Positions 1-26,795 of a stretch of 28,031 nt of DNA are shown in pieces. The notes beneath the pieces are model-generated. The model was not told the origin of the DNA. It saw only the letters and a list, made by a program, of their open reading frames with translations, and ran no database searches. The translations under genes and the position numbers were made by a program. The DNA is from a virus (Duplodnaviria; Heunggongvirae; Uroviricota; Caudoviricetes): IMG/VR virus record IMGVR_UViG_2740892212_000023, one strand, 5' to 3'. The stretch's first letter is position 1. Every line of letters begins with the position of its first letter.

Positions 1-213
1 ACCGCAGCATTAAAGCAGCAGGATGTTGTTCCTAACCTTGCCGGGAATGGCTTTGTGGTAATAGGCCAGTCAACCAGCAGGATGCGTGTAGGCGAATTTG
101 CGGAGCTATTAGAGCTTATACAGGCATTCGGTACAGAGCGTGGCGTTAAGTGGTCAGACGAATCGAGACTGGCTCTGGAGTGGAAAGCGAGATGGGGAGA
201 TCGGGCTGCATGA
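1..213 (+). CDS. ninB: NinB-like recombination protein, C-terminal fragment (5' end lies outside the window)
   Basis: Frame 1 is open from position 1 to TGA at 211-213 (…[27 protein letters not shown]). Position and sequence resemble the C-terminus of lambda NinB as I recall it. Its stop overlaps the next gene's ATG. Confidence 0.45.
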   Translation, partial: TAALKQQDVVPNLAGNGFVVIGQSTSRMRVGEFAELLELIQAFGTERGVKWSDESRLALEWKARWGDRAA

Positions 214-737
214 CTATCAAATCAAATACGCCAGCACACGACAAGGACTGCTGGCAAACGCCGCTTTGGCTTTTTGATGCACTGGATATTGAGTTTGGAT
301 TCTGGCTGGATTCGGCAGCGAGCGACAAAAATGCTCTGTGCGCTCACTGGCTAACTGAGGCCGACGACGCGCTCAATTCTGAGTGGGTAAGCCACGGTGC
401 AATCTGGAATAACCCACCGTACAGCAATATCAGGCCGTGGGTGGAAAAAGCCGCTGAGCAGTGCATACAACAGCGACAGACGGTAGTTATGCTTGTGCCA
501 GAGGATATGTCAGTCGGATGGTTCAGCAAGGCTCTGGAGAGTGTCGACGAAGTTCGTATTATCACTGATGGACGGATTAATTTTATCGAGCCATCGACAG
601 GGCTGGAGAAGAAGGGGAACAGCAAAGGTTCCATGCTGCTGATTTGGCGACCGTTCATCAGTCCTCGACGGATGTTTACTACCGTATCCAAAGCGGCATT
701 GATGGCGATCGGGCAGGGCGTCAGGAAGGCGGCATGA
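210..737 (+). CDS. Phage DNA N6-adenine methyltransferase (Dam-type)
   Basis: ORF 150..737; ATG at 210 overlaps the upstream stop (ATGA). Contains the methyltransferase motif IV NPPY (…[11 protein letters not shown]…) and the N-terminal DKDCWQTP segment typical of small phage Dam enzymes. GTG 150 and ATG 192 are alternative starts. Confidence 0.75.
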
Positions 738-916
738 GACGACAGCGACGAAGTATCACCGACATCATCTGCGAAAACTGCAAATACCTTCCAACGAAAC
801 GCTCCAGAAATAAACGCAAGCCAATCCCAAAAGAATCTGACGTAAAAACCTTCAATTACACGGCTCACCTGTGGGATATCCGGTGGCTTAGAGAACGTGC
901 GAGGAAAACAAGGTGA
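734..916 (+). CDS. ninE: NinE protein
   Basis: 60-aa product [60 protein letters not shown] closely matches lambda NinE from memory. ATG at 734 overlaps the Dam stop (ATGA). Confidence 0.8.
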
Positions 917-1083
917 TTGACCCAAATCGAAGTTACGAACAAGAAAGCGTCGAGCGAGCTTTAACGTGCGCTAACTGCGGTCAGAAGCTGCATGTGCTGG
1001 AAGTTCACGTGTGTGAGCACTGCTGCGCAGAACTGATGAGCGATCCGAATAGCTCAATGTACGAGGAAGAAGACGATGAGTGA
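913..1083 (+). CDS. ninF: NinF protein (GTG start, below the ORF-track size cutoff)
   Basis: Hand translation from GTG 913: [56 protein letters not shown], resembling lambda NinF. The start overlaps the ninE stop. Confidence 0.6.
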
Positions 1084-1288
1084 TTACCTGAAATGGTATC
1101 TCTGCCACCGCTGGTTAATTAAGTTTGCTGTAAAAGACTGGATGACAGCGGATGCCAACAAGCTTAAGCAAAGAAAAGACTATTACTACGCCAGAATGAA
1201 GGAAAACTACTGCTCAATTCGCACTCGCATATTTATTAAAAAAGACCTTCAGTCAATTCTTCAATTGCGAGGGAAGGTAAATGGCTAA
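1076..1288 (+). CDS. Hypothetical nin-region protein (70 aa)
   Basis: ORF 1076..1288, overlapping the neighbouring genes at both ends in the tightly packed nin operon. No recognisable motif. Confidence 0.45.
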   Translation: MSDYLKWYLCHRWLIKFAVKDWMTADANKLKQRKDYYYARMKENYCSIRTRIFIKKDLQSILQLRGKVNG

Positions 1289-1571
1289 CCTACGCAAAGA
1301 AGCGCGCGGCAGAGAATGCCAGGTACGTATTTACGGCGTATGCAATGGCAATCCTGAAACTACAGTTCTGGCACATTACCGGATGGCTGGAATTTGCGGA
1401 ACTGGAATGAAACCTGACGACCTGATCGGTGCATGGGCTTGTAGTGACTGCCACGCGGAGATCGACCGACGCACAAGGATTCTCGACAACAAAGACGCCA
1501 GACTTTACCACCTCGAAGGCGTGATCAGGACGCAGGCGGTATTGCTGAAGGAGGGGAAGATTAAGCCATGA
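1281..1571 (+). CDS. YbcO-like protein (DUF1364-type, putative nuclease)
   Basis: 96-aa product MANLRKEARGRECQVRIYGVCNGNPETTVLAHYR…CSDCHAEIDRR resembles E. coli DLP12 YbcO, with Cys/His-rich motifs. Sits directly upstream of rusA as in DLP12. Confidence 0.7.
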   Translation: MANLRKEARGRECQVRIYGVCNGNPETTVLAHYRMAGICGTGMKPDDLIGAWACSDCHAEIDRRTRILDNKDARLYHLEGVIRTQAVLLKEGKIKP

Positions 1572-1930
1572 ACGAATATCAGTTTGTGCTTCCATACCCG
1601 CCGTCGGTGAATACCTACTGGCGAAGACGGGGAAGCCAATACTACATCAGCGATAAAGGCCAGAAATACCGAAAAGACGTTCAGCAAATCATCCGCCAAC
1701 TTAAGTTAGACATTTTCACCAAATCACGACTCCGCATCAAAGTCATCGCAGACGTTCCAGACTCCCGCCGCCGCGACCTCGATAACATCCTGAAAGGTTT
1801 ACTCGACTCCCTTATCCACGCCGGATTTGCGGAAGACGACGAGCAACTCGATGACATTCGCGTAATTCGTGGTGTGAAAGTACCAGGCGGAAGGCTTGGA
1901 ATAAAAATCACCGAACTGGAGAACGCATGA
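1568..1930 (+). CDS. rusA: Crossover junction endodeoxyribonuclease RusA (Holliday junction resolvase)
   Basis: 120-aa product with the RusA hallmarks (LPYPPSVNTYW…, PDSRRRDLDN…, GGRLGIKITEL), co-linear with E. coli RusA. Translationally coupled to the upstream gene. Confidence 0.9.
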   Translation: MNEYQFVLPYPPSVNTYWRRRGSQYYISDKGQKYRKDVQQIIRQLKLDIFTKSRLRIKVIADVPDSRRRDLDNILKGLLDSLIHAGFAEDDEQLDDIRVIRGVKVPGGRLGIKITELENA

Positions 1931-2115
1931 ACGCCACAATTCAAACGATACCAGAGCTTCTTATCCAGACACGAGGCAATCAGACCGAAGTGGCGAGGAT
2001 GCTTTCCTGTGCAAGAGGAACAGTGCTCAAGTACAACCGAGACAGCAAAGGCGAGCGTCACGTAATAGTTAACGGCGTCCTGATGGTCAAACAGGGCAAG
2101 AGGGGAAGACGATGA
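1927..2115 (+). CDS. ninH: NinH protein
   Basis: 62-aa product …TIPELLIQTRGNQTEVARMLSCARGTVLKYNRD… resembles lambda NinH (helix-turn-helix-like). Confidence 0.75.
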   Translation: MNATIQTIPELLIQTRGNQTEVARMLSCARGTVLKYNRDSKGERHVIVNGVLMVKQGKRGRR

Positions 2116-2735
2116 GACTCGAAAGCGTAGCTAAATTTCATTCGCCAAAAAGCCCGATGATGAGCGACTCACCACGGGCTACGGCTTCTGACTCTCTTTC
2201 CGGTACTGATGTGATGGCTGCTATGGGGATGGCGCAATCACAAGCCGGATTCGGAATGGCTGCATTCTGCGGTAAGCATGAACTCAGCCAGAACGACAAA
2301 CAAAAGGCTATCAACTATCTGATGCAATTTGCACACAAGGTATCGGGGAAATACCGTGGTGTGGCAAAGCTTGAAGGAAATACTAAGGCAAAGGTACTGC
2401 AAGTGCTCGCAACATTCGCTTATGCGGATTATTGCCGTAGTGCCGCGACGCCGGGCGCAAGATGCAGAGATTGCCACGGTACAGGTCGGGCGGTTGATAT
2501 TGCCAAAACAGAGCAGTGGGGGAGAGTTGTTGAGAAAGAGTGCGGAAGATGCAAAGGTGTCGGCTATTCAAGAATGCCAGCAAGCGCCGCATATCGCGCT
2601 GTAACGATGCTAATCCCAAACCTTACTCAACCCACCTGGTCACGCACTGTTAAGCCTCTGTATGACGCTCTGGTGGTGCAATGCCACAAAGAAGAGTCAA
2701 TCGCAGACAACATTTTGAATGCGGTCACACGTTAG
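2112..2735 (+). CDS. Q: Late-gene antiterminator Q (lambda-type)
   Basis: 207-aa product that I recognise as essentially identical to lambda Q (MRLESVAKFHSPKSPMMSDSP…CRDCHGTGRAVD…CGRCKGVGYS…). Followed by the lambda pR' promoter sequence. Confidence 0.95.
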   Translation: MRLESVAKFHSPKSPMMSDSPRATASDSLSGTDVMAAMGMAQSQAGFGMAAFCGKHELSQNDKQKAINYLMQFAHKVSGKYRGVAKLEGNTKAKVLQVLATFAYADYCRSAATPGARCRDCHGTGRAVDIAKTEQWGRVVEKECGRCKGVGYSRMPASAAYRAVTMLIPNLTQPTWSRTVKPLYDALVVQCHKEESIADNILNAVTR

Positions 2736-2777
2736 CAGCATGATTGCCACGGATGGCAACATATTAACGGCATGATA

Positions 2778-2818
2778 TTGACTTATTGAATAAAATTGGG
2801 TAAATTTGACTCAAGAAT
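2778..2818 (+). promoter_or_regulatory. Late promoter pR' with qut-like initial transcribed region
   Basis: -35 TTGACT (2778-2783), 17-bp spacer, -10 TAAATT (2801-2806), matching lambda pR' as I recall it. The predicted +1 to +6 segment is AAGAAT (lambda: AACGAT), so a -10-like pause element is retained although the downstream sequence is new. Confidence 0.75.
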
Positions 2819-2877
2819 GGCAGATTTATATCCGTTCACATTCTTTCAGTTTTTACCCACCTCATCTTTAAGTTCTA

Positions 2878-2990
2878 AGCGCACTGACATGCGCATCATA
2901 AACTCGAGAGCACATAGGAATAGAGCCTGAGAAATATCGCTTTTGGCGACTTCTCTCGTGGTGATATTTCTATGTCAGCAGGCTCTAATA
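2878..2990 (+). repeat. Copy A of a duplicated ~110-nt leader element with conserved interleaved inverted repeats
   Basis: Shares the blocks AGCGCA…GCGCAT…CGAGAGC…GAGCCTGAGAAAT…GGCGAC.TCTCTCG…TTTCT.TG…CAGGCTC with 5518-5624. Lies directly upstream of the HNH gene start. Confidence 0.65.
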
Positions 2991-3006
2991 TCTATGTGGT
3001 TCGCCT

Positions 3007-3497
3007 ATGTTAAAACGTGAAGATGCATTGAGACTTTTTAATTACAATCCAGATACTGGAATTCTTACATGGAAGAATCCACCTCGGTCTTCTAGATTTA
3101 TCTATGGCGCTGTTGCTGGCTATAAACAAATGGATATCTGCAGGTAAAACTTTATGGAATGCGGCTATATGTCCATAGAATTGCATGGCTGATGGTTTAC
3201 AATGATTGGCCAACCGATGTGATTGACTATATTAATGGTGATAGGTCTGATAACCGGATAGCCAATCTTCGTGTTGTTACTAACACTCAAAACTCATGGA
3301 ACAGCAAGATGAGGAAAAACAATTCATCTGGTGTGAAGGGGGTGACTTTTAATTCTGCTGCAAACAAGTGGGTTGGAAGAATTAGGGTCAATGGTAAAAG
3401 GATTCATGTAGGGTGTTTTGACGATATCGAGGAGGCGAGAAAGGCAATGGAAAATGCCAGGATAAAATATCATGGTGAATTCTCCAGTATGGGATAG
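3007..3497 (+). pseudogene. HNH (HNH_3-type) homing endonuclease with C-terminal AP2 domain, interrupted by an apparent -1 frameshift
   Basis: N-terminal part in frame 1 (3007..3147: MLKREDALRLFNYNPDTGILTWKN…AVAGYKQMDICR*). The remainder is in frame 3 from 3126 (TNGYLQVKLYGMRLYVHRIAWLMVYNDWP…IDYINGDRSDNRIANLR…GVKGVTF…KWVGRIRVNGKRIHVGCFDDIEEA…YHGEF, to 3497). The frames switch inside the A-run at 3128-3130. The HNH signature reads DYINGD where the family normally has DHINGD. Confidence 0.7.
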
Positions 3498-3628
3498 ATG
3501 GGTTAATTCGCTCGTTGTGGTAGTGAGATGAAAAGAGGCGGCGCTTACTACCGATTCCGCCTAGTTGGTCACTTCGACGTATCGTCTGGAACTCCAACCA
3601 TCGCAGGCTGAGAGGTCTGTAAAATGCA

Positions 3629-3689
3629 ATCCCGAAACAGTTCGCAGGTAATAGTTAGAGCCTGCATAACGGTTTCGGGATTTTTTATT
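3629..3689 (+). terminator. tR'-like intrinsic terminator (end of the lambda 6S-RNA-homologous segment 3501-3689)
   Basis: Sequence 3501-3689 matches the lambda 6S RNA body from memory. Hairpin ATCCCGAAAC…GGTTTCGGGA followed by a T-run (3681-3689). Confidence 0.75.
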
Positions 3690-3690
3690 T

Positions 3691-3765
3691 GGGTCAGTCG
3701 TATAAAGGTCATTACGGAAGGCTGTTAACCTTCTTATCGTGGTTCGAGTCCACGCTGTCCCGCCA
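3691..3765 (+). tRNA. Candidate tRNA-Asn (anticodon GTT), possibly degenerate
   Basis: Hand-folded cloverleaf: acceptor GGGTCAG/CTGTCCC (one T·T mismatch), anticodon stem GAAGG/CCTTC with loop CTGTTAA, T-arm CGTGG-TTCGAGT-CCACG, discriminator G and encoded CCA. The D-stem is weak. Confidence 0.45.
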
Positions 3766-3770
3766 AATAT

Positions 3771-3846
3771 GCTGGTTTAGCTCCAATGGTAGAGCAGTCG
3801 CCTTGTAAGCGAATGGGTAGCGGTTCAAGTCCGTTAACCAGCACCA
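3771..3846 (+). tRNA. Candidate tRNA-Thr (anticodon TGT)
   Basis: Hand-folded cloverleaf: perfect 7-bp acceptor GCTGGTT/AACCAGC, D-arm GCTC-CAATGGTA-GAGC, anticodon loop CTTGTAA, T-arm AGCGG-TTCAAGT-CCGTT, discriminator A and encoded CCA. Confidence 0.65.
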
Positions 3847-4088
3847 TAACTGAGCCGTAGCCACTGGCTATCCTGAACTCATCAGTGATAGTTACGCTGC
3901 GGCCTTCTACACATGATCTTCGTGAAAGCGGGTGGCAGGAGGCTGCGCTAACAACCTCCTGCCGTTTTGCCCGTGCATATCGGTCACGAACAAATCTGAT
4001 TACTAAACACAGTAGCCTGGATTTGTTCTATCAGTAATCGACCTTATTCCTAATTAAATAGAGCAAATCCCCTTATTGGGGGTAAGAC

Positions 4089-4412
4089 ATGAAGATGCCA
4101 GAAAAACATGACCTGTTAGCCGCCATTCTCGCGGCAAAGGAACAAGGCATCGGGGCAATCCTTGCGTTTGCAATGGCGTACCTTCGCGGCAGGTATAATG
4201 GCGGTGCGTTTACAAAAACAGTAATCGACGCAACGATGTGCGCCATTATCGCCTGGTTCATTCGTGACCTTCTCGACTTCGCCGGACTAAGTAGCAATCT
4301 TGCTTATATAACGAGCGTGTTTATCGGCTACATCGGTACTGACTCGATTGGTTCGCTTATCAAACGCTTCGCTGCTAAAAAAGCCGGAGTAGAAGATGGT
4401 GGAAATCAATAA
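4089..4412 (+). CDS. S: Holin S (class I, lambda-type, with dual-start motif MKMPEK)
   Basis: 107-aa product that I recognise as essentially identical to lambda S. The Met1-Lys2-Met3 dual-start arrangement for antiholin/holin is preserved. Confidence 0.95.
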
Positions 4413-4872
4413 TCAACGTAAGGCGTTCCTCGATATGCTGGCGTGGTCAGAGGGAACTGATAACGGACGTCAGAAAACCAGAAATCATGGTTATGACGTC
4501 ATTGTTGGCGGAGAGCTATTCACTGATTACTCCGATCACCCTCGCAAACTTGTCACGCTAAACCCAAAACTCAAATCAACAGCCGCCGGACGTTACCAGC
4601 TTCTTTCCCGTTGGTGGGATGCCTATCGTAAGCAGCTTGGCCTGAAAGACTTCTCTCCGAAAAGCCAGGACGCTGTGGCATTGCAGCAGATTAAAGAACG
4701 TGGCGCTTTACCGATGATTGATCGTGGTGATATTCGTCAGGCTATCGACCGTTGCAGCAATATCTGGGCTTCGTTGCCGGGCGCTGGTTACGGTCAGTTC
4801 GAGCATAAGGCTGACAGCCTGATTGCAAAATTCAAAGAAGCGGGCGGAAAGGTCAGAGAGATTGAGGTATGA
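4396..4872 (+). CDS. R: Endolysin R (lambda-type lytic transglycosylase)
   Basis: 158-aa product matching lambda R from memory ([26 protein letters not shown]…). Overlaps the S stop. Confidence 0.95.
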
Positions 4873-5306
4873 GCAGAGTAACCGCGATTATCTCCGCTCT
4901 GGTTATCTGCATCATCGTCGGCCTGTCATGGGCTGTTAATCATTACCGTGATAACGCCATTGCCTACAAAGAGCAGCGCGATAAAGCCACATCCACAATC
5001 GCTGACATGCAGAAGCGTCAACGTGATGTAGCAGAACTCGACGCAAGATATACAAAGGAACTTGCTGATGCTAACGCGACTATCGAAAGTCTCCGTGCTG
5101 ATGTTTCTGCTGGGCGTAAGCGCCTGCAAGTCGCCGCCATCTGTGCAAAGTCAACGACCGGAGCCAGCAGCATGGGCGATGGAGAAAGCCCAAGACTTAC
5201 AGCAGATGCTGAACTCAATTATTACCGTCTCCGAAGTGGAATCGACAGGATAACCGCGCAGGTTAACTACCTGCAGGAATACATCAGGACGCAATGCCTT
5301 CGATGA
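4869..5306 (+). CDS. Rz: Spanin Rz (i-spanin); N-terminus lambda-like, remainder divergent
   Basis: 145 aa. The first ~30 residues ([17 protein letters not shown]…NHYRDNAI) match lambda Rz, after which the sequence diverges. N-terminal TM helix plus coiled-coil character. Confidence 0.85.
5062..5253 (+). CDS. Rz1: Spanin Rz1 (o-spanin lipoprotein) embedded in the +1 frame of Rz
   Basis: ORF wholly inside Rz in another frame. Signal-peptide-like N-terminus with lipobox-like LGVSAC and a Pro-rich mature region. The exact start is uncertain. Confidence 0.65.
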
Positions 5307-5479
5307 TAGCGATAATTTTACTCATCATCCTTCACATCTGGCTCTGTAGACAGGGTGGTGATCACTTCTGGAGTAAATCCAGATTAAACATCTCATTGCT
5401 GATGCTTGATATTGAGCATCTGGCGCGCGGTAAGGGGCTGCGTTGAGATAAGAGCCAGTCATCACAAACACCAGGATTT

Positions 5480-5505
5480 AGCCCCGCATTCGCGGGGCTT
5501 TTTAT
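5480..5505 (+). terminator. Rho-independent terminator downstream of the lysis cassette
   Basis: Hairpin AGCCCCGC-ATTC-GCGGGGCT followed by TTTTTAT. Confidence 0.7.
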
Positions 5506-5517
5506 ATCTTAATTTCA

Positions 5518-5624
5518 CAGCGCATCTCACGCGCATATTAACGAGAGCCTTTCAGTAAGCGAGCCTGAGAAATGCCGTTATAGGTGGCGACCTCTCTCGG
5601 GCGGCTTTTCTGTGAGACAGGCTC
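5518..5624 (+). repeat. Copy B of the duplicated leader element, upstream of rha
   Basis: Same conserved blocks in the same order as 2878-2990, lying between the post-lysis terminator and the rha start codon. Confidence 0.65.
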
Positions 5625-5647
5625 ACTTTCTAAAAGGTAAAGACGCT

Positions 5648-6166
5648 ATGAATCATCAATTGGCTAATCTCGATTTCCGGGACATGGTGGTTGTTTCTGG
5701 TGATCGCGTGATCACAACCTCCCGCAAGGTAGCAGCTTACTTCGACAAGCAGCATCACCACATCATTCAGAAAATCGAAAAGCTAGACTGTTCGGATGAA
5801 TTTCTAACCAGCAACTTTTCGCGGGTTACCTATGAACACAAGGGTAATCAGTATGTTGAATATGAAATTTCCAAAGACGGCGCGATGTACATCATCATGT
5901 CGTTTACCGGAAAAAAAGCTGCCGCCATCAAAGAGGCGTTTATCAAAGCATTTAATTGGATGCGTGACAGGCTGATGGAGATGGCTCACTCATACCAAAG
6001 AGAGCACAACGAGTTAATGCTGGAGTTCATGAAGGAAAAGGATGTTGCCAGTATGTCAGGACGCTTGCTGAACCGCTGGGGCAGGATCAAAAAACCGCAA
6101 CTCATAGCAAGAATCGAAAGGCTTGAGCAGCAGGCGCAAATATCGATCCCCGGACTGCCAAAGTGA
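5648..6166 (+). CDS. rha: Phage regulatory protein Rha (P22 orf201-like)
   Basis: Rha-family N-terminal motif (…VVVSGDRVITTSRKVAAYFDKQHHHIIQKIEKL…). ATG 5648 is preceded by AAAGG; the ORF track's GTG 5612 extension is probably not translated. Same position as rha in P22. Confidence 0.8.
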   Translation: MNHQLANLDFRDMVVVSGDRVITTSRKVAAYFDKQHHHIIQKIEKLDCSDEFLTSNFSRVTYEHKGNQYVEYEISKDGAMYIIMSFTGKKAAAIKEAFIKAFNWMRDRLMEMAHSYQREHNELMLEFMKEKDVASMSGRLLNRWGRIKKPQLIARIERLEQQAQISIPGLPK

Positions 6167-6280
6167 CCATTCCAAAGCCCATCTACGGGTGATTCCTTAC
6201 AGAGTGGCTTTGATAATGGCTTATACCCTACACGGGATAACTTAACTGATATCCCTTTTAACGGATAAACGGAGCCAACA

Positions 6281-6523
6281 ATGGCAGAGATTATTCCCAT
6301 GACTGAAGAACAGAAATTCCAGTTAGAGATTTACAAACTGGTCATGAACCAGAACGCAGCCGCAGAAGAAGCATTTCAGTTCATTGGCACTGACGAGCTG
6401 AAGCTTGAGCTATTCAAAATTCACTTCCAGTCAGGCGGCGCTAATTCAGATATCACGACCCGCACTATCGAAGCGGTACGTAAATCGAAGGAAGCGTTAG
6501 ACCTGTTCACCACCGGAGCATAA
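6281..6523 (+). CDS. Hypothetical protein (P22 orf80-like, 80 aa)
   Basis: 80-aa ORF between rha and the terminase small subunit, the position of orf80 in P22. Acidic, helical-looking, no motif. Confidence 0.55.
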   Translation: MAEIIPMTEEQKFQLEIYKLVMNQNAAAEEAFQFIGTDELKLELFKIHFQSGGANSDITTRTIEAVRKSKEALDLFTTGA

Positions 6524-6602
6524 TCATGGCAACTCAAGGTTTCGACAACCCATCCAAATTCCGCGATGAATGGGATAAGCAAGCAGAAGGGAAATAATCA
6601 AT

Positions 6603-7091
6603 ATGGCAGCACCAAAGGGCAACCGATTTTGGGAGGCCCGCAGTAGTCATGGGCGAAACCCTAAATTCGAATCGCCTGAGGCGCTGTGGGCTGCTTGTTG
6701 TGAATACTTCGAGTGGGTGGAAGCTAACCCGCTATGGGAGATGAAGGCGTTCTCGTATCAGGGGGAAGTGATACAAGAGCCTATCGCCAAGATGCGAGCG
6801 ATGACCATCACCGGCCTCACTCTGTTCATTGATGTGACGCTTGAAACATGGCGCACATATCGCCTGCGAGAAGATTTATCTGAAGTCGTTACGCGAGCAG
6901 AACAGGTCATCTACGACCAGAAATTCTCTGGCGCAGCCGCTGACCTTCTCAACGCTAACATCATCGCCCGTGATTTGGGCCTCAAAGAGCAGTCGCAAGT
7001 TGAAGACGTGACACCTGATAAGGGAGATCGCGATAAGCGACGCTCTCGTATCAAGGAGCTATTCAACCGTGGAACTGGACGCGATTCTTGA
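6603..7091 (+). CDS. Terminase small subunit (P22 gp3-type)
   Basis: 162-aa product that I recognise as very close to P22 gp3 ([29 protein letters not shown]…). Contains the candidate pac site. Confidence 0.9.
6870..6891 (+). other. Candidate P22-type pac site (headful packaging initiation) inside the small-terminase gene
   Basis: GAAGATTTATCTGAAGTCGTTA matches the 22-bp P22 pac sequence as I recall it, at the expected position within gene 3. Confidence 0.65.
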
Positions 7092-8565
7092 TAACCTGAG
7101 CGACGAAGAGCAAATAGAATTGCTCGAGCTACTCGAAGAAGAAGAGAACTACCGGAACACACACCTGCTATATGAATTTACGCCATACAGCAAACAGCGT
7201 GAGTTCATCGACGCCGGGCATGACTATCCAGAGCGCTGTTTTATGGCTGGTAACCAGCTTGGTAAGTCATTTACTGGGGCTGCTGAAGTCGCGTTTCACC
7301 TTACCGGGCGTTATCCGGGCACAAAAGGCTATCCTGCTGATGGTAAATATGGCGGAGAGTGGAAAGGTAAGCGTTTCTATGAGCCTGTTGTCTTCTGGAT
7401 TGGTGGCGAGACAAACGAGACTGTAACCAAAACGACTCAACGCATCCTGTGCGGTCGTATCGAAGAGAATGACGAGCCTGGCTACGGTTCCATACCGAAA
7501 GAGGACATCATTAGCTGGAAGAAGTCTCCTTTCTTTCCGAACCTTGTTGATCATCTTCTGGTTAAGCATCACACGGCTGATGGCGTTGAAGATGGCATTT
7601 CAATCTGCTACTTCAAACCATACTCGCAAGGCCGCGCTCGCTGGCAGGGTGACACAATCCACGGCGTGTGGTTTGATGAAGAGCCACCATACAGCATTTA
7701 TGGCGAAGGGCTTACCCGTACCAACAAATACGGGCAATTCTCGATTCTGACGTTTACCCCGCTGATGGGGATGTCTGACGTTGTTACCAAGTTCCTGAAG
7801 AATCCCAGCAAGTCTCAGAAAGTGGTCAACATGACCATCTATGACGCTGAGCACTACACCGACGAGCAGAAAGAGCAAATCATCGCATCCTATCCTGAGC
7901 ATGAGAGAGAGGCGCGTGCTCGCGGTATTCCTACGATGGGTAGCGGTCGAATCTTCCAGATACCGGAAGAGACGATTAAGTGTCAGCCGTTCGAGTGTCC
8001 TGATCACTTCTACGTCATCAATGCAATGGACTTCGGATGGGATCACCCACAGGCACACATCCAGCTTTGGTGGGATAAAGACGAGGACGTGATTTATCTT
8101 TCTCGCGTCTGGAAGGCCAAACAGAAGAAGGCGACAGAGGCATGGAGTGCTGTTAAAGCATGGAGCAAAAACACCCCTACGGCTTGGCCTCATGACGGGC
8201 ATCAGCACGAAAAGGGAGGTGGCGCTCAGCTCAAGGAACAATACGCCGACGCTGGGTTCGACATGTTGCCAGATCATGCAACATGGCCTGATGGAGGTAA
8301 TGCGGTCGAACCCGGGATAGCAGAGATACGCGACATGATGCTCGACGGTCGTTTCAAGGTATTTAACACCTGCGAGCCATTCTTTGAAGAGTTTCGCCTG
8401 TATCACCGTGATGAGAACGGGAAGATCGTAAAGCTAAATGACGACATCCTTTCTGCTGTTCGCTATGGCTACATGATGAGGCGTTTTGCAATACAGATGC
8501 GAGACATCAAAGATCCTAAAGAGATTGATTACTCAAGCTACAACATACCTTGCGGAGTTGGATGA
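7069..8565 (+). CDS. Terminase large subunit (P22 gp2-type)
   Basis: 498-aa product with the N-terminus [37 protein letters not shown]… as in P22 gp2. Overlaps the terminase small subunit by 23 nt. Confidence 0.95.
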
Positions 8566-10766
8566 TGGCTGATGATAGAAAGATGACTGACTGGCATCGC
8601 AAGGTGCTGTGCAACTTTGATAATGCCTGGTCAGCAACGCAGGATATGCGTGAGCAGATTATTGAGGCTCAACGTTTCGTCCGGGTATCCGGCGCACAGT
8701 GGGAAGGCAGCACAAACGCTGGTTACTCATTTGATGAAGGCAGGTTTGAGCATTACCCGCGCTTTGAACTGAATAAGATTGCCCGTGAATGTGATCGCAT
8801 CATTGGCGAGTATCGACAGAATCGCATCAGCGTTAAATTCAGGCCGAAGGACGATAAGGCATCGGAAGCGTTAGCCGAAAAGATGAATGGTAAATTCCGC
8901 GCTGACTATCAGGAGACATCCGGTGGCGAAGCGTGTGATAACGCATTTGATGATGCTGTAACGGGCGGATTCGGTTGTTTCCGCATGTGTGCCGATTACG
9001 AAGATGAAATGGATCCGAGTAACGAGCAGCGACGCATCAGCCTTCTTCCTGTTTACGACCCAGCGACATGCGTCTTCTTCGATCAGGACAGCAAGCAATA
9101 TGACCGCTCTGATGCTATGTGGGCTATGGAAATGTTCTCCATGACGCCCAAAGCGTTCGAGGCTGAATACCCTGATTCCATCGCGGCAAGCCTTTCCCGT
9201 GATGACACTGGTACTCAGTATGACTGGTCAACGCCTGACGCCATCTATGTTGGACGCTACTACGAAGTTCGCATAGAGAAGGTGAAGCTCACGGCGTGGC
9301 GCAACCCTGTTAGCGGAGAAACGGCAATCTATGATGAAGAGCAAATCAAAGATATTGTCGACGAGCTGACCGATGGTGCATTCGAACTGATTGGCGAGCG
9401 GACAGTGAAGAAACGCCGCGTTTATTGCGGACTTCTGTCTGGCGCTGAATGGCTGGAAGAACCGAAGCGTATTCCGGGCGAACATATTCCTCTCATCCCG
9501 GTATATGGGCGTCGCTCATTTGTTGATAATCAGGAGCGAATCGAAGGCCACGCAGCAAAAGCGATGGATGCGCAGCGTCTTGAGAACCTGATGGTTTCCA
9601 TGATTGCAGATAACGCTACTCAGGCTGGCGGTGATGGCATTCCTGTAGTTGATGTTGACATGATTCCTGGTCCTCTAGCCAATCATTGGGCGGAGCGCAA
9701 CAAAAAGCGCCCGGCGTTCCTGCCGATGGTCAGTCTGAAAAACAAAAACGGAGATATTACTGCGCAGGCTCAGGTCAGCAGTTATACGCCTCCGACACAA
9801 ATGCCTCCAGCTCTTGCCGGGCTATTGCAGTACACCGGAACGGCTATTCAGCAAATTACAGGTGCGTCGCAGCTTGAGAACATGCCGAGCAACGTCGCCA
9901 CCGATACCGTTGATAGCATCTTTAACCGGATGGATACGCAGTCCTATATCTACATGGACAACATGGCTAAATCCATGCGCCGTGCTGGCGTCGTGTGGCT
10001 TTCTATGGCTCGTGAAGTCTATGGCAGCGATACGCCAATGCGCATCGTTAATGAGGACGGCAGCGATGACGTGGCGCTGATGACTGGTGAAGTGGTTGAC
10101 CGTCAGACAGGGCAGGTTATCGCGCTTAACGACCTTTCGCAGGGTAACTATGAAGTGACTGTCGATGTCGGTCAGTCGTTCGCTACTCGCCGTGATGCAA
10201 CGGTTAAGTTGTTACTTTCCATGCTGGCACTTATCCCGCCAGGAACGCCGAAGCATGACCTTGTATCGTCGATGATTCTCGACAATATGGACGGCGAAGG
10301 GATGGACGACCTTAAAGAATACAACCGAAATCAGTTGCTTCTGTCTGGAGTTATCAAGCCGAGAACGCCAGAAGAGCAGCAAATGGTTGAGCAGGCGAAA
10401 CAACAACAGGCCAGTCAGCCAGATCCGGCTATGGTTGCAGCGCAAGGTCAGCTTCTTGCTGGTCAGGCTGAATTGCAGAAAGCGCAGAACGAACAGGCAG
10501 CCATTCAGGTTAAAGCATTCCAGGCACAGACTGATGCTCAGGTTGCAGCGGCAAATGTTGTGAAAATCCTCGCATCTGCCGATAGTCAGCAGAAATCTGA
10601 TATCCGCGAGGCTCTGAAACTGCTCGGACAGTTCCAGCAACAGCAAGGAGACAATGCCCGTGCTGATGCAGAGCTTGTCCTGAAAAGTCAGGCACAGGGC
10701 CATGCGCAGCGCATGGACATCAGCAGCATCCTGCAAAAATCAACTCAGCAACAACCACAGCAGTAA
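8562..10766 (+). CDS. Portal protein (P22 gp1 family, divergent)
   Basis: About 734 aa from ATG 8562, overlapping the terminase stop (ATG 8565 is an alternative; the ORF track starts at TTG 8550). Q/A-rich helical C-terminal region typical of P22-like portals (…PEEQQMVEQAKQQQASQPDPAMVAAQGQLLAGQAELQKAQNEQ…). Confidence 0.85.
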   Translation: MMADDRKMTDWHRKVLCNFDNAWSATQDMREQIIEAQRFVRVSGAQWEGSTNAGYSFDEGRFEHYPRFELNKIARECDRIIGEYRQNRISVKFRPKDDKASEALAEKMNGKFRADYQETSGGEACDNAFDDAVTGGFGCFRMCADYEDEMDPSNEQRRISLLPVYDPATCVFFDQDSKQYDRSDAMWAMEMFSMTPKAFEAEYPDSIAASLSRDDTGTQYDWSTPDAIYVGRYYEVRIEKVKLTAWRNPVSGETAIYDEEQIKDIVDELTDGAFELIGERTVKKRRVYCGLLSGAEWLEEPKRIPGEHIPLIPVYGRRSFVDNQERIEGHAAKAMDAQRLENLMVSMIADNATQAGGDGIPVVDVDMIPGPLANHWAERNKKRPAFLPMVSLKNKNGDITAQAQVSSYTPPTQMPPALAGLLQYTGTAIQQITGASQLENMPSNVATDTVDSIFNRMDTQSYIYMDNMAKSMRRAGVVWLSMAREVYGSDTPMRIVNEDGSDDVALMTGEVVDRQTGQVIALNDLSQGNYEVTVDVGQSFATRRDATVKLLLSMLALIPPGTPKHDLVSSMILDNMDGEGMDDLKEYNRNQLLLSGVIKPRTPEEQQMVEQAKQQQASQPDPAMVAAQGQLLAGQAELQKAQNEQAAIQVKAFQAQTDAQVAAANVVKILASADSQQKSDIREALKLLGQFQQQQGDNARADAELVLKSQAQGHAQRMDISSILQKSTQQQPQQ

Positions 10767-22320: not shown

Positions 22321-22857
22321 TCAAACAACCCACCAGTTTGCCTGATTGGATGCCAGCCTTGCAGTTTTTATGGAATTAATTATGCCATGCTCAAGAGCCT
22401 TGTTAGCATCCAAAATGGTCGAGTCTGCTATCAGGGATGCCCACCTAATATGGGTTCCGATGTCGATATTGAACGTCTCAACGAAGCGATCAAGATCGTT
22501 ATCGAGGCATTTCCCGTACTCTCTCAATCTGGCATGGTCGGCGGCTGGGGAGGCAAAGCACCATAATAGAGGATGTAACAGGAATCTTGATAATGGGTTT
22601 GCGAAACGTTCTGAGCCAGCCAGGAAAACGATATTAGCTATGGATTCAACATTGCTTATGTTGTGAGTTCTAACGGTAACAGGGAGTGACTTAAGAAAGT
22701 TATACGCAGTAAAGCCAGCGGCAGTTTCCCCTCCCTGACTTGATATATGGATATTTAATTCAGTTGCGCCTTGAGATAATGCGGTGAGACAGTGGTTCTG
22801 AAGTTGCCCAACAGTGGCAGTGTTAACGGGGCATAAGAAATGAATTGTGTGCAGCAT
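22321..22857 (-). CDS. ClpP-family (S14-like) serine peptidase homologue, 178 aa
   Basis: Co-linear with the ClpP core: …NIHISSQGGETAAGFTAYNFLKSL…ISNVESIANIVFLAGSERFANPLSRFLLHP…DANKALEHGIINSI (ClpP: …YINSPGGVITAGMSIYDTM…[32 protein letters not shown]…SAPEAVEYGLVDSI). Candidate Ser, His and Asp triad positions are conserved. Its start overlaps the stop of the upstream Mnt-like gene. Confidence 0.7.
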   Translation of the reverse strand: MLHTIHFLCPVNTATVGQLQNHCLTALSQGATELNIHISSQGGETAAGFTAYNFLKSLPVTVRTHNISNVESIANIVFLAGSERFANPLSRFLLHPLLWCFASPAADHARLREYGKCLDNDLDRFVETFNIDIGTHIRWASLIADSTILDANKALEHGIINSIKTARLASNQANWWVV

Positions 22858-23105
22858 TATTTTTCATCCTTAGCATACATGGTCTTTAGCGTCTCAAGCA
22901 GCGCCTCTTTGAATTTGTCAGCTTCTTGCTGAGCAAATGACTCAACTGACTTTGGCGACCTATCTTCATCAATCGCGGCTTGCAAAATCATGACGATCTC
23001 GGAGTTAACAGAGCGACCATTTTTTGATGCTCTGACAGCAAGAGCCTCGCGTAAAGATTCAGGGATTCTTACCGTAGTTGGAGAAATTGACACACCCTTT
23101 GCCAT
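22857..23105 (-). CDS. mnt: Mnt-like ribbon-helix-helix repressor
   Basis: 82 aa from ATG 23105 (MAKGVSISPTTVRIPESLREALAVRASKNGRSVNSEIVMILQAAID…), compared with P22 Mnt …FRMPMEVREKLKFRAEANGRSMNSELLQIVQDAL…. Divergent from the arc/ant genes as in the P22 immI region. Confidence 0.75.
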   Translation of the reverse strand: MAKGVSISPTTVRIPESLREALAVRASKNGRSVNSEIVMILQAAIDEDRSPKSVESFAQQEADKFKEALLETLKTMYAKDEK

Positions 23106-23128
23106 ATCACACCTTTGGTATTCAATTT

Positions 23129-23219
23129 GATAGCAAAGTGTATGCAAAAAAATTTTGACTAGATATACTCACTTTGCTATCTTTTGTATTCGAAAAGAGT
23201 TGTTTGTGTGGAGGGTAAC
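23129..23219. promoter_or_regulatory. Divergent immI-like promoter/operator region
   Basis: Perfect 12-bp inverted repeat GATAGCAAAGTG (23129-23140) and CACTTTGCTATC (23170-23181). Between and after them: -35-like TTGACT (23155-23160), 17-bp spacer, -10-like TATCTT (23178-23183), then GGAGGG RBS before ATG 23220. Confidence 0.5.
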
Positions 23220-24632: not shown

Positions 24633-26795
24633 ATGACAGACATTACAGCCAATGTTGTAGTGAGTATGCCTTCGCAACTCTTCACTATGGCGAGTTCTTT
24701 TAAAGCTGTTGCCAATGGAAAAATTTATATCGGTAAAATTGACACTGACCCGGTAAATCCTGAAAACCAGATTCAGGTTTATGTGGAGAACGAAGACGGC
24801 TCTCACGTTCCTGTTTCGCAACCAATCATCATTAACGCTGCTGGATACCCGGTATATAACGGGCAGATTGCAAAGTTCGTAACTGTGCAAGGCCATTCTA
24901 TGGCTGTTTATGACGCATATGGTGCACAGCAGTTCTATTTTCCTAATGTGTTGAAGTATGAGCCGGATCAATTAAGGTTGGAGCTTGAATCATCTGGTGG
25001 AGCAGGATTGATAGGTGGTGTTTCGAAGCCTATTACTTTTTTTGGTGCTATTGGTGATGGATTAACAAACAATACGCAGGCATTTAACGATGCAGAGATA
25101 TCGGAATTCAATGACATATACATTCCTGATGGTATTTATAATGTAAATAATATTAACTTAAATAAGAGATATTGGGGGCCTGGCATAGTAGTGATTAATT
25201 ACCAGACTAAATATTCTGGCTCTGGTGTTAACGACATGACCGTGTCAGGAATATACAATGGACAGCAAGATCTAAATGCAATTGTAAGAATAAAAGAAGC
25301 TTCAAATCCTGATAAGCTTGAATTCAGTACAGATAATGGAGTTACATGGCGTGACACGATAGACGTGTACAACCCAATCGATGACAGTGTATCTCAGCAA
25401 CCAATCGTAATACTTGCAGGTGGGGTGGATTTTTTCGTAAGTGGATTGAAGATAAACTTTTCTTCAACCACTGGACATACAGTAAATGACTCATGGTCAT
25501 TTTTCATTCCTTCCAATCCATCAGTAATAAACACAGGAAGTGGCAGCATCGTTAAATCAGGAAGCGTTATTTTTAATGTTAGCGGAAACAATGATACTAA
25601 TACTTCCGCTGGAAAAGACTCATTAGGCGGTGGAAACGTAGGAGCTAACAATACCGCATATGGGTGGAAGAGTTTGCACTCAAACACTACAGGATACGCA
25701 AATACCGCGTCTGGGATTCAGTCTATGGAAAACAATAAGACTGGTAAAAACAATTGTGCATACGGTGCTGATTCTCTAAGAGCTAACGTATCTGGTTCTG
25801 ATAACGTAGCGGTTGGGGTTTTTGCGTTATGTGCAAACACAACAGGCTACGGTAATACTGGTATTGGTAATGATACTAACAGGTATAACAAAACAGGATT
25901 TGGGAATACTGCGGCAGGTGTGCAGGCCTTGTATCACAACAGTGCTGGTAATGAGAACACCGCTTTTGGTGAATATGCGTTACGTGGCGGTAATTCCAGT
26001 TTTCCTACGGGGGTGTCTATCCAGTATTGTGTTGCGGTAGGGGCTAAGTCGGGTTTCAACGCGTTAGGTAATAATAATACAGCTATAGGTTACGAGGCGC
26101 TATATTCTGCATCAGGATCTGATAATGTTGGTATTGGATTCGATGCAGGGTTTAAAGTAACGGCTGGATCTTTCAATGTATTTTTAGGTTCTAATTCTGG
26201 TAACGTGTCAGAGCAGGCTACAGATGTGACAAACTGCGTCCTTCTCGGAGATAATACAAAATCAACCGGAAGTAACGCAGTAGCTATCGGTAGTGGGGTA
26301 ATTGCCGCTCAGAATACTGTAGCTATAGGTAATAGTGAGCATGAATTATTCTTTCATTATGGGAAAATTACACCACAAATTGATAATGCTTTTGATATTG
26401 GTGGGCCGGATGCGAGATATAAAACAATATATGCAACTACAGGAATGATAAATACATCAAATGAAATGTTGAAAACAAAACTAACAGACATTGATGTTGC
26501 TGAAAAAAAAGCTGCACTAGAAATAAAAGATAATATTAAAAAGTTTAAGATGCTGGATTCTGTTGAGGTAAAGGGATTTGATGGTGCTAGGTGGCATTTT
26601 GGTGTTGGAGCTCAAACTGTTGGTAATATAATGAGGAAGCACGGACTTGATCCTAGTAAGTATGGGTTTTGGTGTCACGATAAAACGCATCGCGAACACA
26701 TGACTGGAAATATAGATATCTTTTGTGAAAGTTATGGTATAAGATATGACGAACTTGCAATGTTTATATTGGCATCAATATCTTTATGTGAATAA
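24633..26795 (+). CDS. Tailspike protein: P22 gp9-type head-binding N-terminus, G/N/T-rich repeat receptor-binding region, C-terminal S74-like intramolecular chaperone
   Basis: The N-terminal ~115 aa resemble the P22 gp9 head-binding domain ([11 protein letters not shown]…[33 protein letters not shown]…). The central region carries about 15-aa repeats of the form N(T/N)A.G…AL…N..G. The C-terminus begins SNEMLK (Ser-x4-Lys spacing as in S74 autoproteolytic chaperone domains). AT-rich after about 24950. Confidence 0.85.

Follow-up and report, generated by a model that had tools for sequence, protein, structure and literature searches.

Among the closest described systems to the gene considered here are the HNH (HNN) homing endonucleases of the I-HmuI and I-BasI type found in Bacillus phages (PDB 1U3E). 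Residues D74, H75 and N96 are catalytic in I-HmuI (PMC12724721). The I-HmuI gene resides in a group I intron and its product has a C-terminal helix-turn-helix domain; the gene described here, by contrast, is free-standing and codes for a C-terminal AP2 domain. Relative to I-HmuI, the copy analysed here also lacks the catalytic histidine and a continuous reading frame. The same two-domain architecture is present in the free-standing HNN-AP2 genes of the Xanthomonas phages Xp10, OP1 and Xop411 (PHROG 99), which share the conserved boxes HRLAW, WP, DH, DNR, NLR and N with our gene (46% identity to Xop411 by tblastn; phrog_99 match with E = 1e-76). In Xanthomonas phages this class occurs as intact, truncated and degenerate copies, for which a model of gain followed by degeneration has been proposed (PMC2248197). 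Those genes are scattered in lytic genomes, whereas the present lineage is fixed directly after the antiterminator gene Q in temperate lambdoid and P22-like prophages. A further comparison is with the terminase-assisting HNH proteins of the HK97 gp74 type, which are likewise small phage HNH proteins. Genes of that type adjoin the terminase of cos phages and are required for packaging, whilst 3.1 kb, including the lysis cassette, separate our gene from the small terminase gene downstream, and the phage has a small terminase of the P22 gp3 type (GP3_package, ORF 6603–7091). P22 packages its DNA by a headful mechanism. Assignment to the gp74-like group was rejected, as lysis genes intervene and the gene is missing from the close relatives E212, CUS-3 and HK620.

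The window, by which we mean the whole stretch of DNA analysed (28,031 nucleotides), has the gene and domain content of a P22-like prophage (CUS-3/P22-like) with a late control region of the lambda type. The control side runs Dam, ninE, ninF, RusA, ninH and the Q antiterminator (207 aa; 2112–2735), and downstream of these genes lie two tRNAs, lambda-like S, R and Rz, and then P22-type terminase, portal and coat genes; a tailspike with P22 head-binding and endosialidase domains and an integrase are also present. The HNH_3 + AP2 gene is situated between Q and the tRNAs. The ninE (734–916) and ninF (913–1083) genes are intact and not pseudogenes, despite being uncalled in the gene calls of the source assembly (L003), and the Q, lysis and virion/morphogenesis ORFs are similar in length to the ones in phage E212. 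Since the neighbouring late-region genes are intact, the decay described below is specific to the accessory HNH-AP2 gene and is not a symptom of general prophage decay. Two further features of the prophage can be recorded. The tailspike (24633–26795) carries P22 head-binding, endosialidase and S74 chaperone domains and is CUS-3-like, which suggests a K1-capsule host, and on the minus strand a ClpP-like protease ORF (22321–22857) adjoins an Arc-like repressor ORF (22857–23147).

The HNH_3 + AP2 gene (3007–3497, plus strand) is split across two reading frames, as the original prediction had claimed from the letters. Translation from the ATG at 3007 gives MLKRE...AVAGYKQMDICR and terminates at a TAA at 3145–3147 after 46 codons; this N-terminal fragment (3007–3147, plus strand) consists of 40 native codons, six out-of-frame codons (QMDICR) and the stop. 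The homologous reading continues in a second frame, which is closed by a TAA at 3123–3125, is open from 3126, reads TNGYLQVKLYGMRLYVHRIAWL...VIDYINGDRSDNRIANLR... and stops at 3495–3497; between 3126 and 3497 it contains ...TNGYLQVKLYGMRLYVHRIAWLMVYNDWPTDVIDYINGDRSDNRIANLR.... The first ATG in this shifted frame, at 3159 (Met52), begins a 112-aa ORF that holds the HNH motif and the AP2 domain. Pfam matches in the downstream frame are HNH_3 (PF13392) at 57–58 bits against a cut-off of 24.8, with the HNN-type beta-beta-alpha-metal nuclease motif at 3168–3296 on the plus strand, and AP2 at 34.3 bits against a cut-off of 33.3, with the DNA-binding domain at 3327–3476 on the same strand. The 46-aa N-terminal piece gave no Pfam match.

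Alignment with intact E. coli alleles reveals one missing base and one substitution in the window gene and nothing else; these two lesions are the sole differences from the closest intact haplotypes (GF131, EC187792 and L091) over the whole of the 682-bp cassette that carries the gene. The missing A that had been predicted is thus a genuine single-base deletion, although the run to which it was ascribed, at 3128–3130, is the wrong one. Where the intact alleles read GGCTATAAAACAAATGG (also quoted as TATAAAACAAATGG) the window reads GGCTATAAACAAATGG, which assigns the lost A to the run at 3124–3126 on the plus strand, still within the range of 3118–3135 first indicated. This run has three A residues in the window and four in all intact alleles examined, and spans codons K40/T41 of the intact protein (...AGYKTNGYLQ...). 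The deletion leaves the full-length frame without everything past residue 40, and the window copy therefore does not have the continuous ORF with an N-terminal DNA-contact domain expected of an HNH_3 / I-HmuI-like endonuclease.

A frame change within an A-rich stretch (AAACAAA) invites the thought that the full-length protein might be restored by programmed recoding, either by a –1 ribosomal frameshift or by transcriptional slippage. The zero frame (UAU AAA CAA AUG), however, lacks a slippery heptamer of the form X XXY YYZ, and transcriptional slippage would need a much longer A-run. All relatives use one continuous frame, and any recoded product would still carry the tyrosine described below. 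Lacking a slippery site and having relatives with a single frame, the gene was set aside as a candidate programmed frameshift gene, and we give recoding practically no chance of being the explanation.

The substitution is a C>T at 3228, by which, in alignment with the intact alleles, the CAT codon for His75 becomes TAT for tyrosine (3228–3230, plus strand); the DYINGD motif noted earlier in place of DHINGD is accounted for by this change. The family profile matches I-HmuI (1U3E) with E = 2e-5, and D74-H75...N87...N96 align with the I-HmuI residues of the same numbers. His75 is histidine in 120 of 120 representatives recovered in a search with the intact protein, and in 185 of 185 homologue cluster representatives once a further search, started from the Tyr allele, had been added. 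Histidine is thus the residue to be expected at this position, as had been supposed, and no homologue that tolerates tyrosine emerged from the family alignment despite the Tyr-seeded search. In place of the catalytic Asp-His dyad, equivalent to D74-H75 of I-HmuI, the window has D-Y. The asparagine residues N87 and N96, in columns that are invariant or nearly so in the family, are kept in the window motif NRIANLRVVTNTQNSWN, the HNH_3 profile is matched above its curated threshold, and both the beta-beta-alpha-metal fold and the AP2 profile with its three-stranded sheet plus helix are recognisable. Replacement of the motif histidine abolishes cleavage by HNH nucleases, as in Cas9 H840A and colicin E9 H103A. 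By this analogy the Tyr75 protein would be inactive and the window copy a dead derivative of the HNH_3 / I-HmuI-like family. Either lesion alone should abolish or cripple cleavage, and the two together would leave no route to an active nuclease.

The allele with three A residues and TAT is found in eight loci (L003–L008, L094 and L095) from separate assemblies or runs, one of which is the window's own sequence. Their sources are the assembly GCA_001592595.1, five Logan (SRA-run) assemblies and two IMG/VR contigs, and the two lesions occur together in every case (8/8 loci). The NCBI and SRA-run carriers were found using the exact 112-aa Tyr-bearing product, and the IMG/VR contigs by an exact DNA scan, which returned the window and one contig 99.27% identical to it over 4 kb. 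GCA_001592595.1 is 100% identical to positions 1–9497 of the window, and the differences that set L004, L005 and L095 apart from the window are confined to the lysis genes, downstream of 4093. The carriers have a block of about 2.9 kb in common, without differences, and should be read as independent samples of one allele, not as independent mutational events. Judged from these comparisons, the allele is one heritable haplotype, resident in prophages that recombined afterwards. The IMG/VR scans for the A3 and the TAT patterns gave the same two contigs and no single-lesion allele, a metagenome scan for the A3 pattern gave no match, and the full-length Tyr75 protein, sought in three haplotype backgrounds, is absent from a collection of 15 billion proteins, data of a kind that cannot reveal an allele with the frameshift only.

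These data bear directly on a sequencing or assembly artefact, which had been offered as an alternative and under which the true genome would have AAAA, an intact ORF and possibly CAT. Single-base indels in homopolymers are a common class of error, but the run in question is just three to four bases long. Recurrence of the identical double-lesion allele in an NCBI assembly, five SRA-run assemblies and two IMG/VR contigs, some of them with diverged lysis genes, makes such an error very unlikely, and errors would not be expected to produce complete linkage of a substitution and an indel.

Intact copies of the gene are readily found. A search of 5426 complete E. coli genomes recovered the region from 16, at 98.2–99.5% identity; in each, the match exceeds the query by one base and covers an annotated HNH endonuclease. 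Six of these, checked base by base (GF131, GPEC1240, EC187792, P393-F10, CH4794 and GPEC1405), encode a continuous 163-aa protein, either WP_227913765.1 or WP_000919140.1. Every intact allele examined and complete in its locus has the A4 run, CAT and a 163-aa ORF, and the 13 IMG/VR contigs with the A4 run are likewise intact wherever the locus contains the whole gene. A set of 21 intact coding sequences, representing 13 haplotypes, segregates at 13 synonymous and 8 non-synonymous sites, giving a pN/pS of 0.17 (binomial p = 6e-5), with no change at a family-invariant residue. This ratio indicates that the intact gene is constrained; on the sequence evidence it is under purifying selection, and the window copy appears as a rare broken allele.

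Shorter gene calls need some care in this family. A 112-aa form with histidine (P0122, in the cluster of P0001) is present in about 1400 index blocks of assemblies, and in all eight E. coli loci examined it reflects the choice of an internal start codon (Met52) within a gene that is intact at 163 aa. Neither truncation nor frameshift can therefore be read from a 112-aa call. Proteins of 112 aa from Citrobacter (P0008) and Xenorhabdus (P0011) were considered as independent truncations and set aside, since the E. coli 112-aa His calls are start choices. Some sources name the 112-aa call a ‘Fis family transcriptional regulator’, which is an annotation artefact. A single-protein scan of genome contigs detected no relatives; an alignment-based contig scan, biased by its DHING pattern, detected distant relatives only (48% identity or less, in unrelated bacteria), and these were left out of the residue statistics for that reason. 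PADLOC returned a generic homing-endonuclease model only and NCBIfam returned no match, an outcome that does not support a role in a known defence system.

The open 112-aa ORF of the window, with its intact AP2 domain, raises the question, already posed as the other alternative, of whether the Tyr75 fragment, retaining an HNH fold joined to AP2, has been kept or domesticated as a nuclease-dead, sequence-specific DNA binder, whether in regulation or in protection of the target site. Re-initiation is conceivable, as the ATG of the 112-aa ORF lies 11 nt past the upstream stop, and gene callers often pick the same ATG even in intact genes (P0122). Tyr75 is, in addition, a precise catalytic knockout of a sort unlikely to arise at random (by our estimate, about 8 of 1467 possible coding substitutions). 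Against this, no good Shine-Dalgarno sequence stands at the normal distance before the ATG at 3159, and the fragment is without the N-terminal beta-sheet domain, which aligns with I-HmuI residues 18–55. The Tyr75 allele is found in no other lineage and is rare, young and without the further variation by which selection could be gauged. We consider a retained role improbable, and return to the reading of the window copy as a broken gene.

The position of the gene is defined by comparison with lambda. Alignment with lambda (J02459) and phage E212 shows that the window is identical to lambda from the end of Q through the late promoter pR' to ...GACTCAA at 2814. The promoter, identified by promoter scan and alignment, is of the lambda type (2778–2806, plus strand) with a –35 element TTGACT, a 17-nt spacer and a –10 element TAAATT. 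There follows a cassette of 682 bp, comprising a leader and the HNH-AP2 gene (2815–3496, plus strand), that is absent from lambda and E212, both of which have a single C in its place (lambda ...GACTCAA|C|GATGGGTTAATTCG); the empty site in the lambda pR'-6S interval lies around TTGACTCAACGATGGGTTAATTCG. On the 3' side of the insert, lambda sequence resumes at GATGGGTTAATTCG... and continues through the 6S region to the tR' hairpin (3631–3688). The retained 6S-RNA segment and tR' together occupy 3497–3690 on the plus strand, as judged by alignment with lambda and RNA folding, and the stem of tR' is formed by CCCGAAAC (3631–3638) with GGTTTCGGG (3671–3679), followed by a U-run to 3688. The HNH-AP2 gene thus comes first after pR', with tR' on its downstream side. 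One consequence of the arrangement is that the lambda 6S RNA sequence forms the 3' untranslated region of the HNH transcript. A tRNA-Asn(GTT) (3691–3765) and a tRNA-Thr(TGT) (3771–3846) lie directly 3' of tR', where lambda has unrelated sequence before S. This tRNA pair is variable among cassette carriers, being present for example in EC187792 and L086 and absent for example from GF131, and the two tRNAs were the sole Rfam matches in window positions 2600–4100 at E ≤ 1.

In lambda, the hexamer AACGAT just past the start site induces a sigma-70-dependent pause that Q requires. The window has AAGAAT instead, which is still –10-like, and Q loading is probably kept despite the change. A search of 50,697 phage records returned neither the cassette nor its leader. 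The 16 complete E. coli genomes with the cassette compare with 316 that have a lambda-type 6S segment but no cassette, so that the element is polymorphic for presence and absence at one precise site. A second lambda-type 6S copy was seen in none of the 16 complete carrier genomes, but with only about one expected by chance this count is uninformative. Our literature search on HNH genes at lambdoid late promoters found nothing relevant.

A fourth state of the site is provided by three complete E. coli genomes in which the match to the leader is confined to its first 54 nt. The one examined, FDAARGOS_943 (L115 1308–1660), keeps pR' and these 54 nt, followed by the end of tR', and has neither the HNH gene nor the 6S segment. 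A 9-bp direct repeat, TAGAGCCTG, at 2921–2929 and 3656–3664 on the plus strand of the window coincides with the endpoints of this deletion. FDAARGOS_943 also has a GC-rich hairpin insert of 46 nt upstream. Together with the window allele, the 54-nt remnants show that degenerate and deleted copies exist in populations, and the same site can be found empty (lambda, E212), intact, inactivated by point mutations (window) or deleted to a remnant (FDAARGOS_943). The life cycle of a homing-endonuclease gene is said, in the model of Goddard and Burt, to pass through invasion, fixation, degeneration and loss. The likeness here is that all stages occur at one locus; the difference is that the fixed position is explicable by linkage to Q and pR' without homing. 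The suggestion that the gene is a decaying selfish element thus finds support in an intact gene under purifying selection, empty sites, deletion remnants and two disabling lesions.

The HNH-AP2 gene is also found at the same place in more distant relatives. P0002, P0003, P0004 and P0006 (85, 74, 65 and 61% protein identity), located in Logan contigs or a Xenorhabdus bovienii assembly, are encoded directly 3' of a Q-family gene, and all relatives lie before lysis genes where the contig extends far enough. The Q (Antiterm) proteins of L109, L110/L111 and L113 have 254, 273 and 276 aa, compared with 207 aa in the window. For P0002 (L112) the preceding ORF of 193 aa is cut by the end of the contig, and the terminal part of this ORF aligns with that of the window's Q; P0007 (57% identity; L114) is preceded by a cut ORF of no assigned family.

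These relatives share a leader of about 120 nt (window 2879–2998; L109, L110, L112, L113 and L114) that is more conserved than the protein, for which identities range from 57 to 98%, and the 135-nt leader of the window is 100% identical in 15 of the 16 complete E. coli carriers. A small hairpin or palindrome, GCGCA-N6-TGCGC (2879–2894, plus strand), supported by a consensus fold and pair counts, occupies the 5' end of this conserved stretch. A long hairpin (2911–2998, plus strand) follows, in which a Shine-Dalgarno-like sequence, GGUGAU (2960–2965), is paired and an ATG at 2972 falls in an internal loop. The single-sequence fold of the long hairpin has a z-score of –3.06; across the six homologous loci 97.3% of cells are paired and four pairs have changed on both sides, and in this six-sequence alignment none of 500 shuffles reaches the observed covariation score, with slid controls only 32–56% paired. 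From six sequences, this is suggestive of a covarying leader structure. The ATG at 2972 opens a predicted upstream ORF of 13 codons (MSAGSNIYVVRLC*; 2972–3013, plus strand) whose stop overlaps the HNH start codon. At the P0004 locus (L110) the corresponding ATG shares the reading frame of the HNH gene and gives P0004 an N-terminal extension. No intrinsic terminator was found in the window leader; the conserved leader of L113 and L114 is preceded by a hairpin that resembles a terminator and has a U-run. Hairpins that occlude the ribosome binding site restrain homing-endonuclease genes of T4, and the window hairpin resembles these. The leader may thus act as a translational gate for a toxic nuclease.

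Taken further, these observations would fit an HNN-AP2 lineage that has specialised to the start of the lambdoid late operon, with the leader gating a toxic nuclease and the pR'/qut region of competitors without the cassette as its target, for homing or exclusion. We put this forward tentatively, and think it rather less probable than not. If the leader is a gate, translation would take place only in a particular transcript or processing state, and if the lineage is specialised in this way, the two precise hits in the window would reflect selection against nuclease activity in the lysogen.

A related question is whether the two-hit inactivation was adaptive, a variant of the decay explanation in which the nuclease was harmful to the lysogen or phage, its loss was selected, and the second lesion cleared residual activity or a harmful dead DNA-binding protein. 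In lambda, the interval between pR' and tR' is transcribed without Q, so the gene, lying in that interval, may be transcribed in lysogens. Both of the two changes in 682 bp are disabling, whilst changes among intact alleles are mostly synonymous; the frameshift by itself leaves an ORF with the whole HNH motif, and His75 would be altered by only about 0.5% of random single coding substitutions. On the other hand, this is a post hoc argument from two mutations, and a sequence of H75Y first and a neutral indel second requires no selection. Intact alleles persist in many lysogens, and the conserved leader hairpin probably holds translation low anyway. We regard the adaptive reading, including the part that it assigns to the second lesion, as unlikely, if a good deal less so than a retained role for the fragment.

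In conclusion, the window copy is very probably a real, young pseudogene of single origin, derived from a free-standing HNN-AP2 endonuclease and belonging to a known kind. The intact 163-aa gene is part of a 682-bp accessory cassette between pR' and tR' in a CUS-3/P22-like prophage, and the window lineage acquired two mutations on one haplotype. Loss of an A from the A4 run at codons 40/41 ends the full-length frame after 46 residues, and C>T at 3228 converts His75 of the D-H dyad to tyrosine, in either order and from whatever cause. The outcome would be the specific decay of a dispensable selfish gene, corresponding to the degeneration stage of the homing-endonuclease life cycle, if the intact gene does function in homing, as its family would suggest. 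Annotation should accordingly mark the locus as a pseudogene and not as a 112-aa ‘HNH endonuclease’ or ‘Fis family regulator’. As a pseudogene it is one more decayed homing-endonuclease gene and of little weight. The occurrence of four states of a selfish gene at one site in the leader of the lambda late promoter provides a compact natural series for study of this life cycle in temperate phages, and the conserved, structured leader offers a small lead on how prophages may control a resident nuclease.
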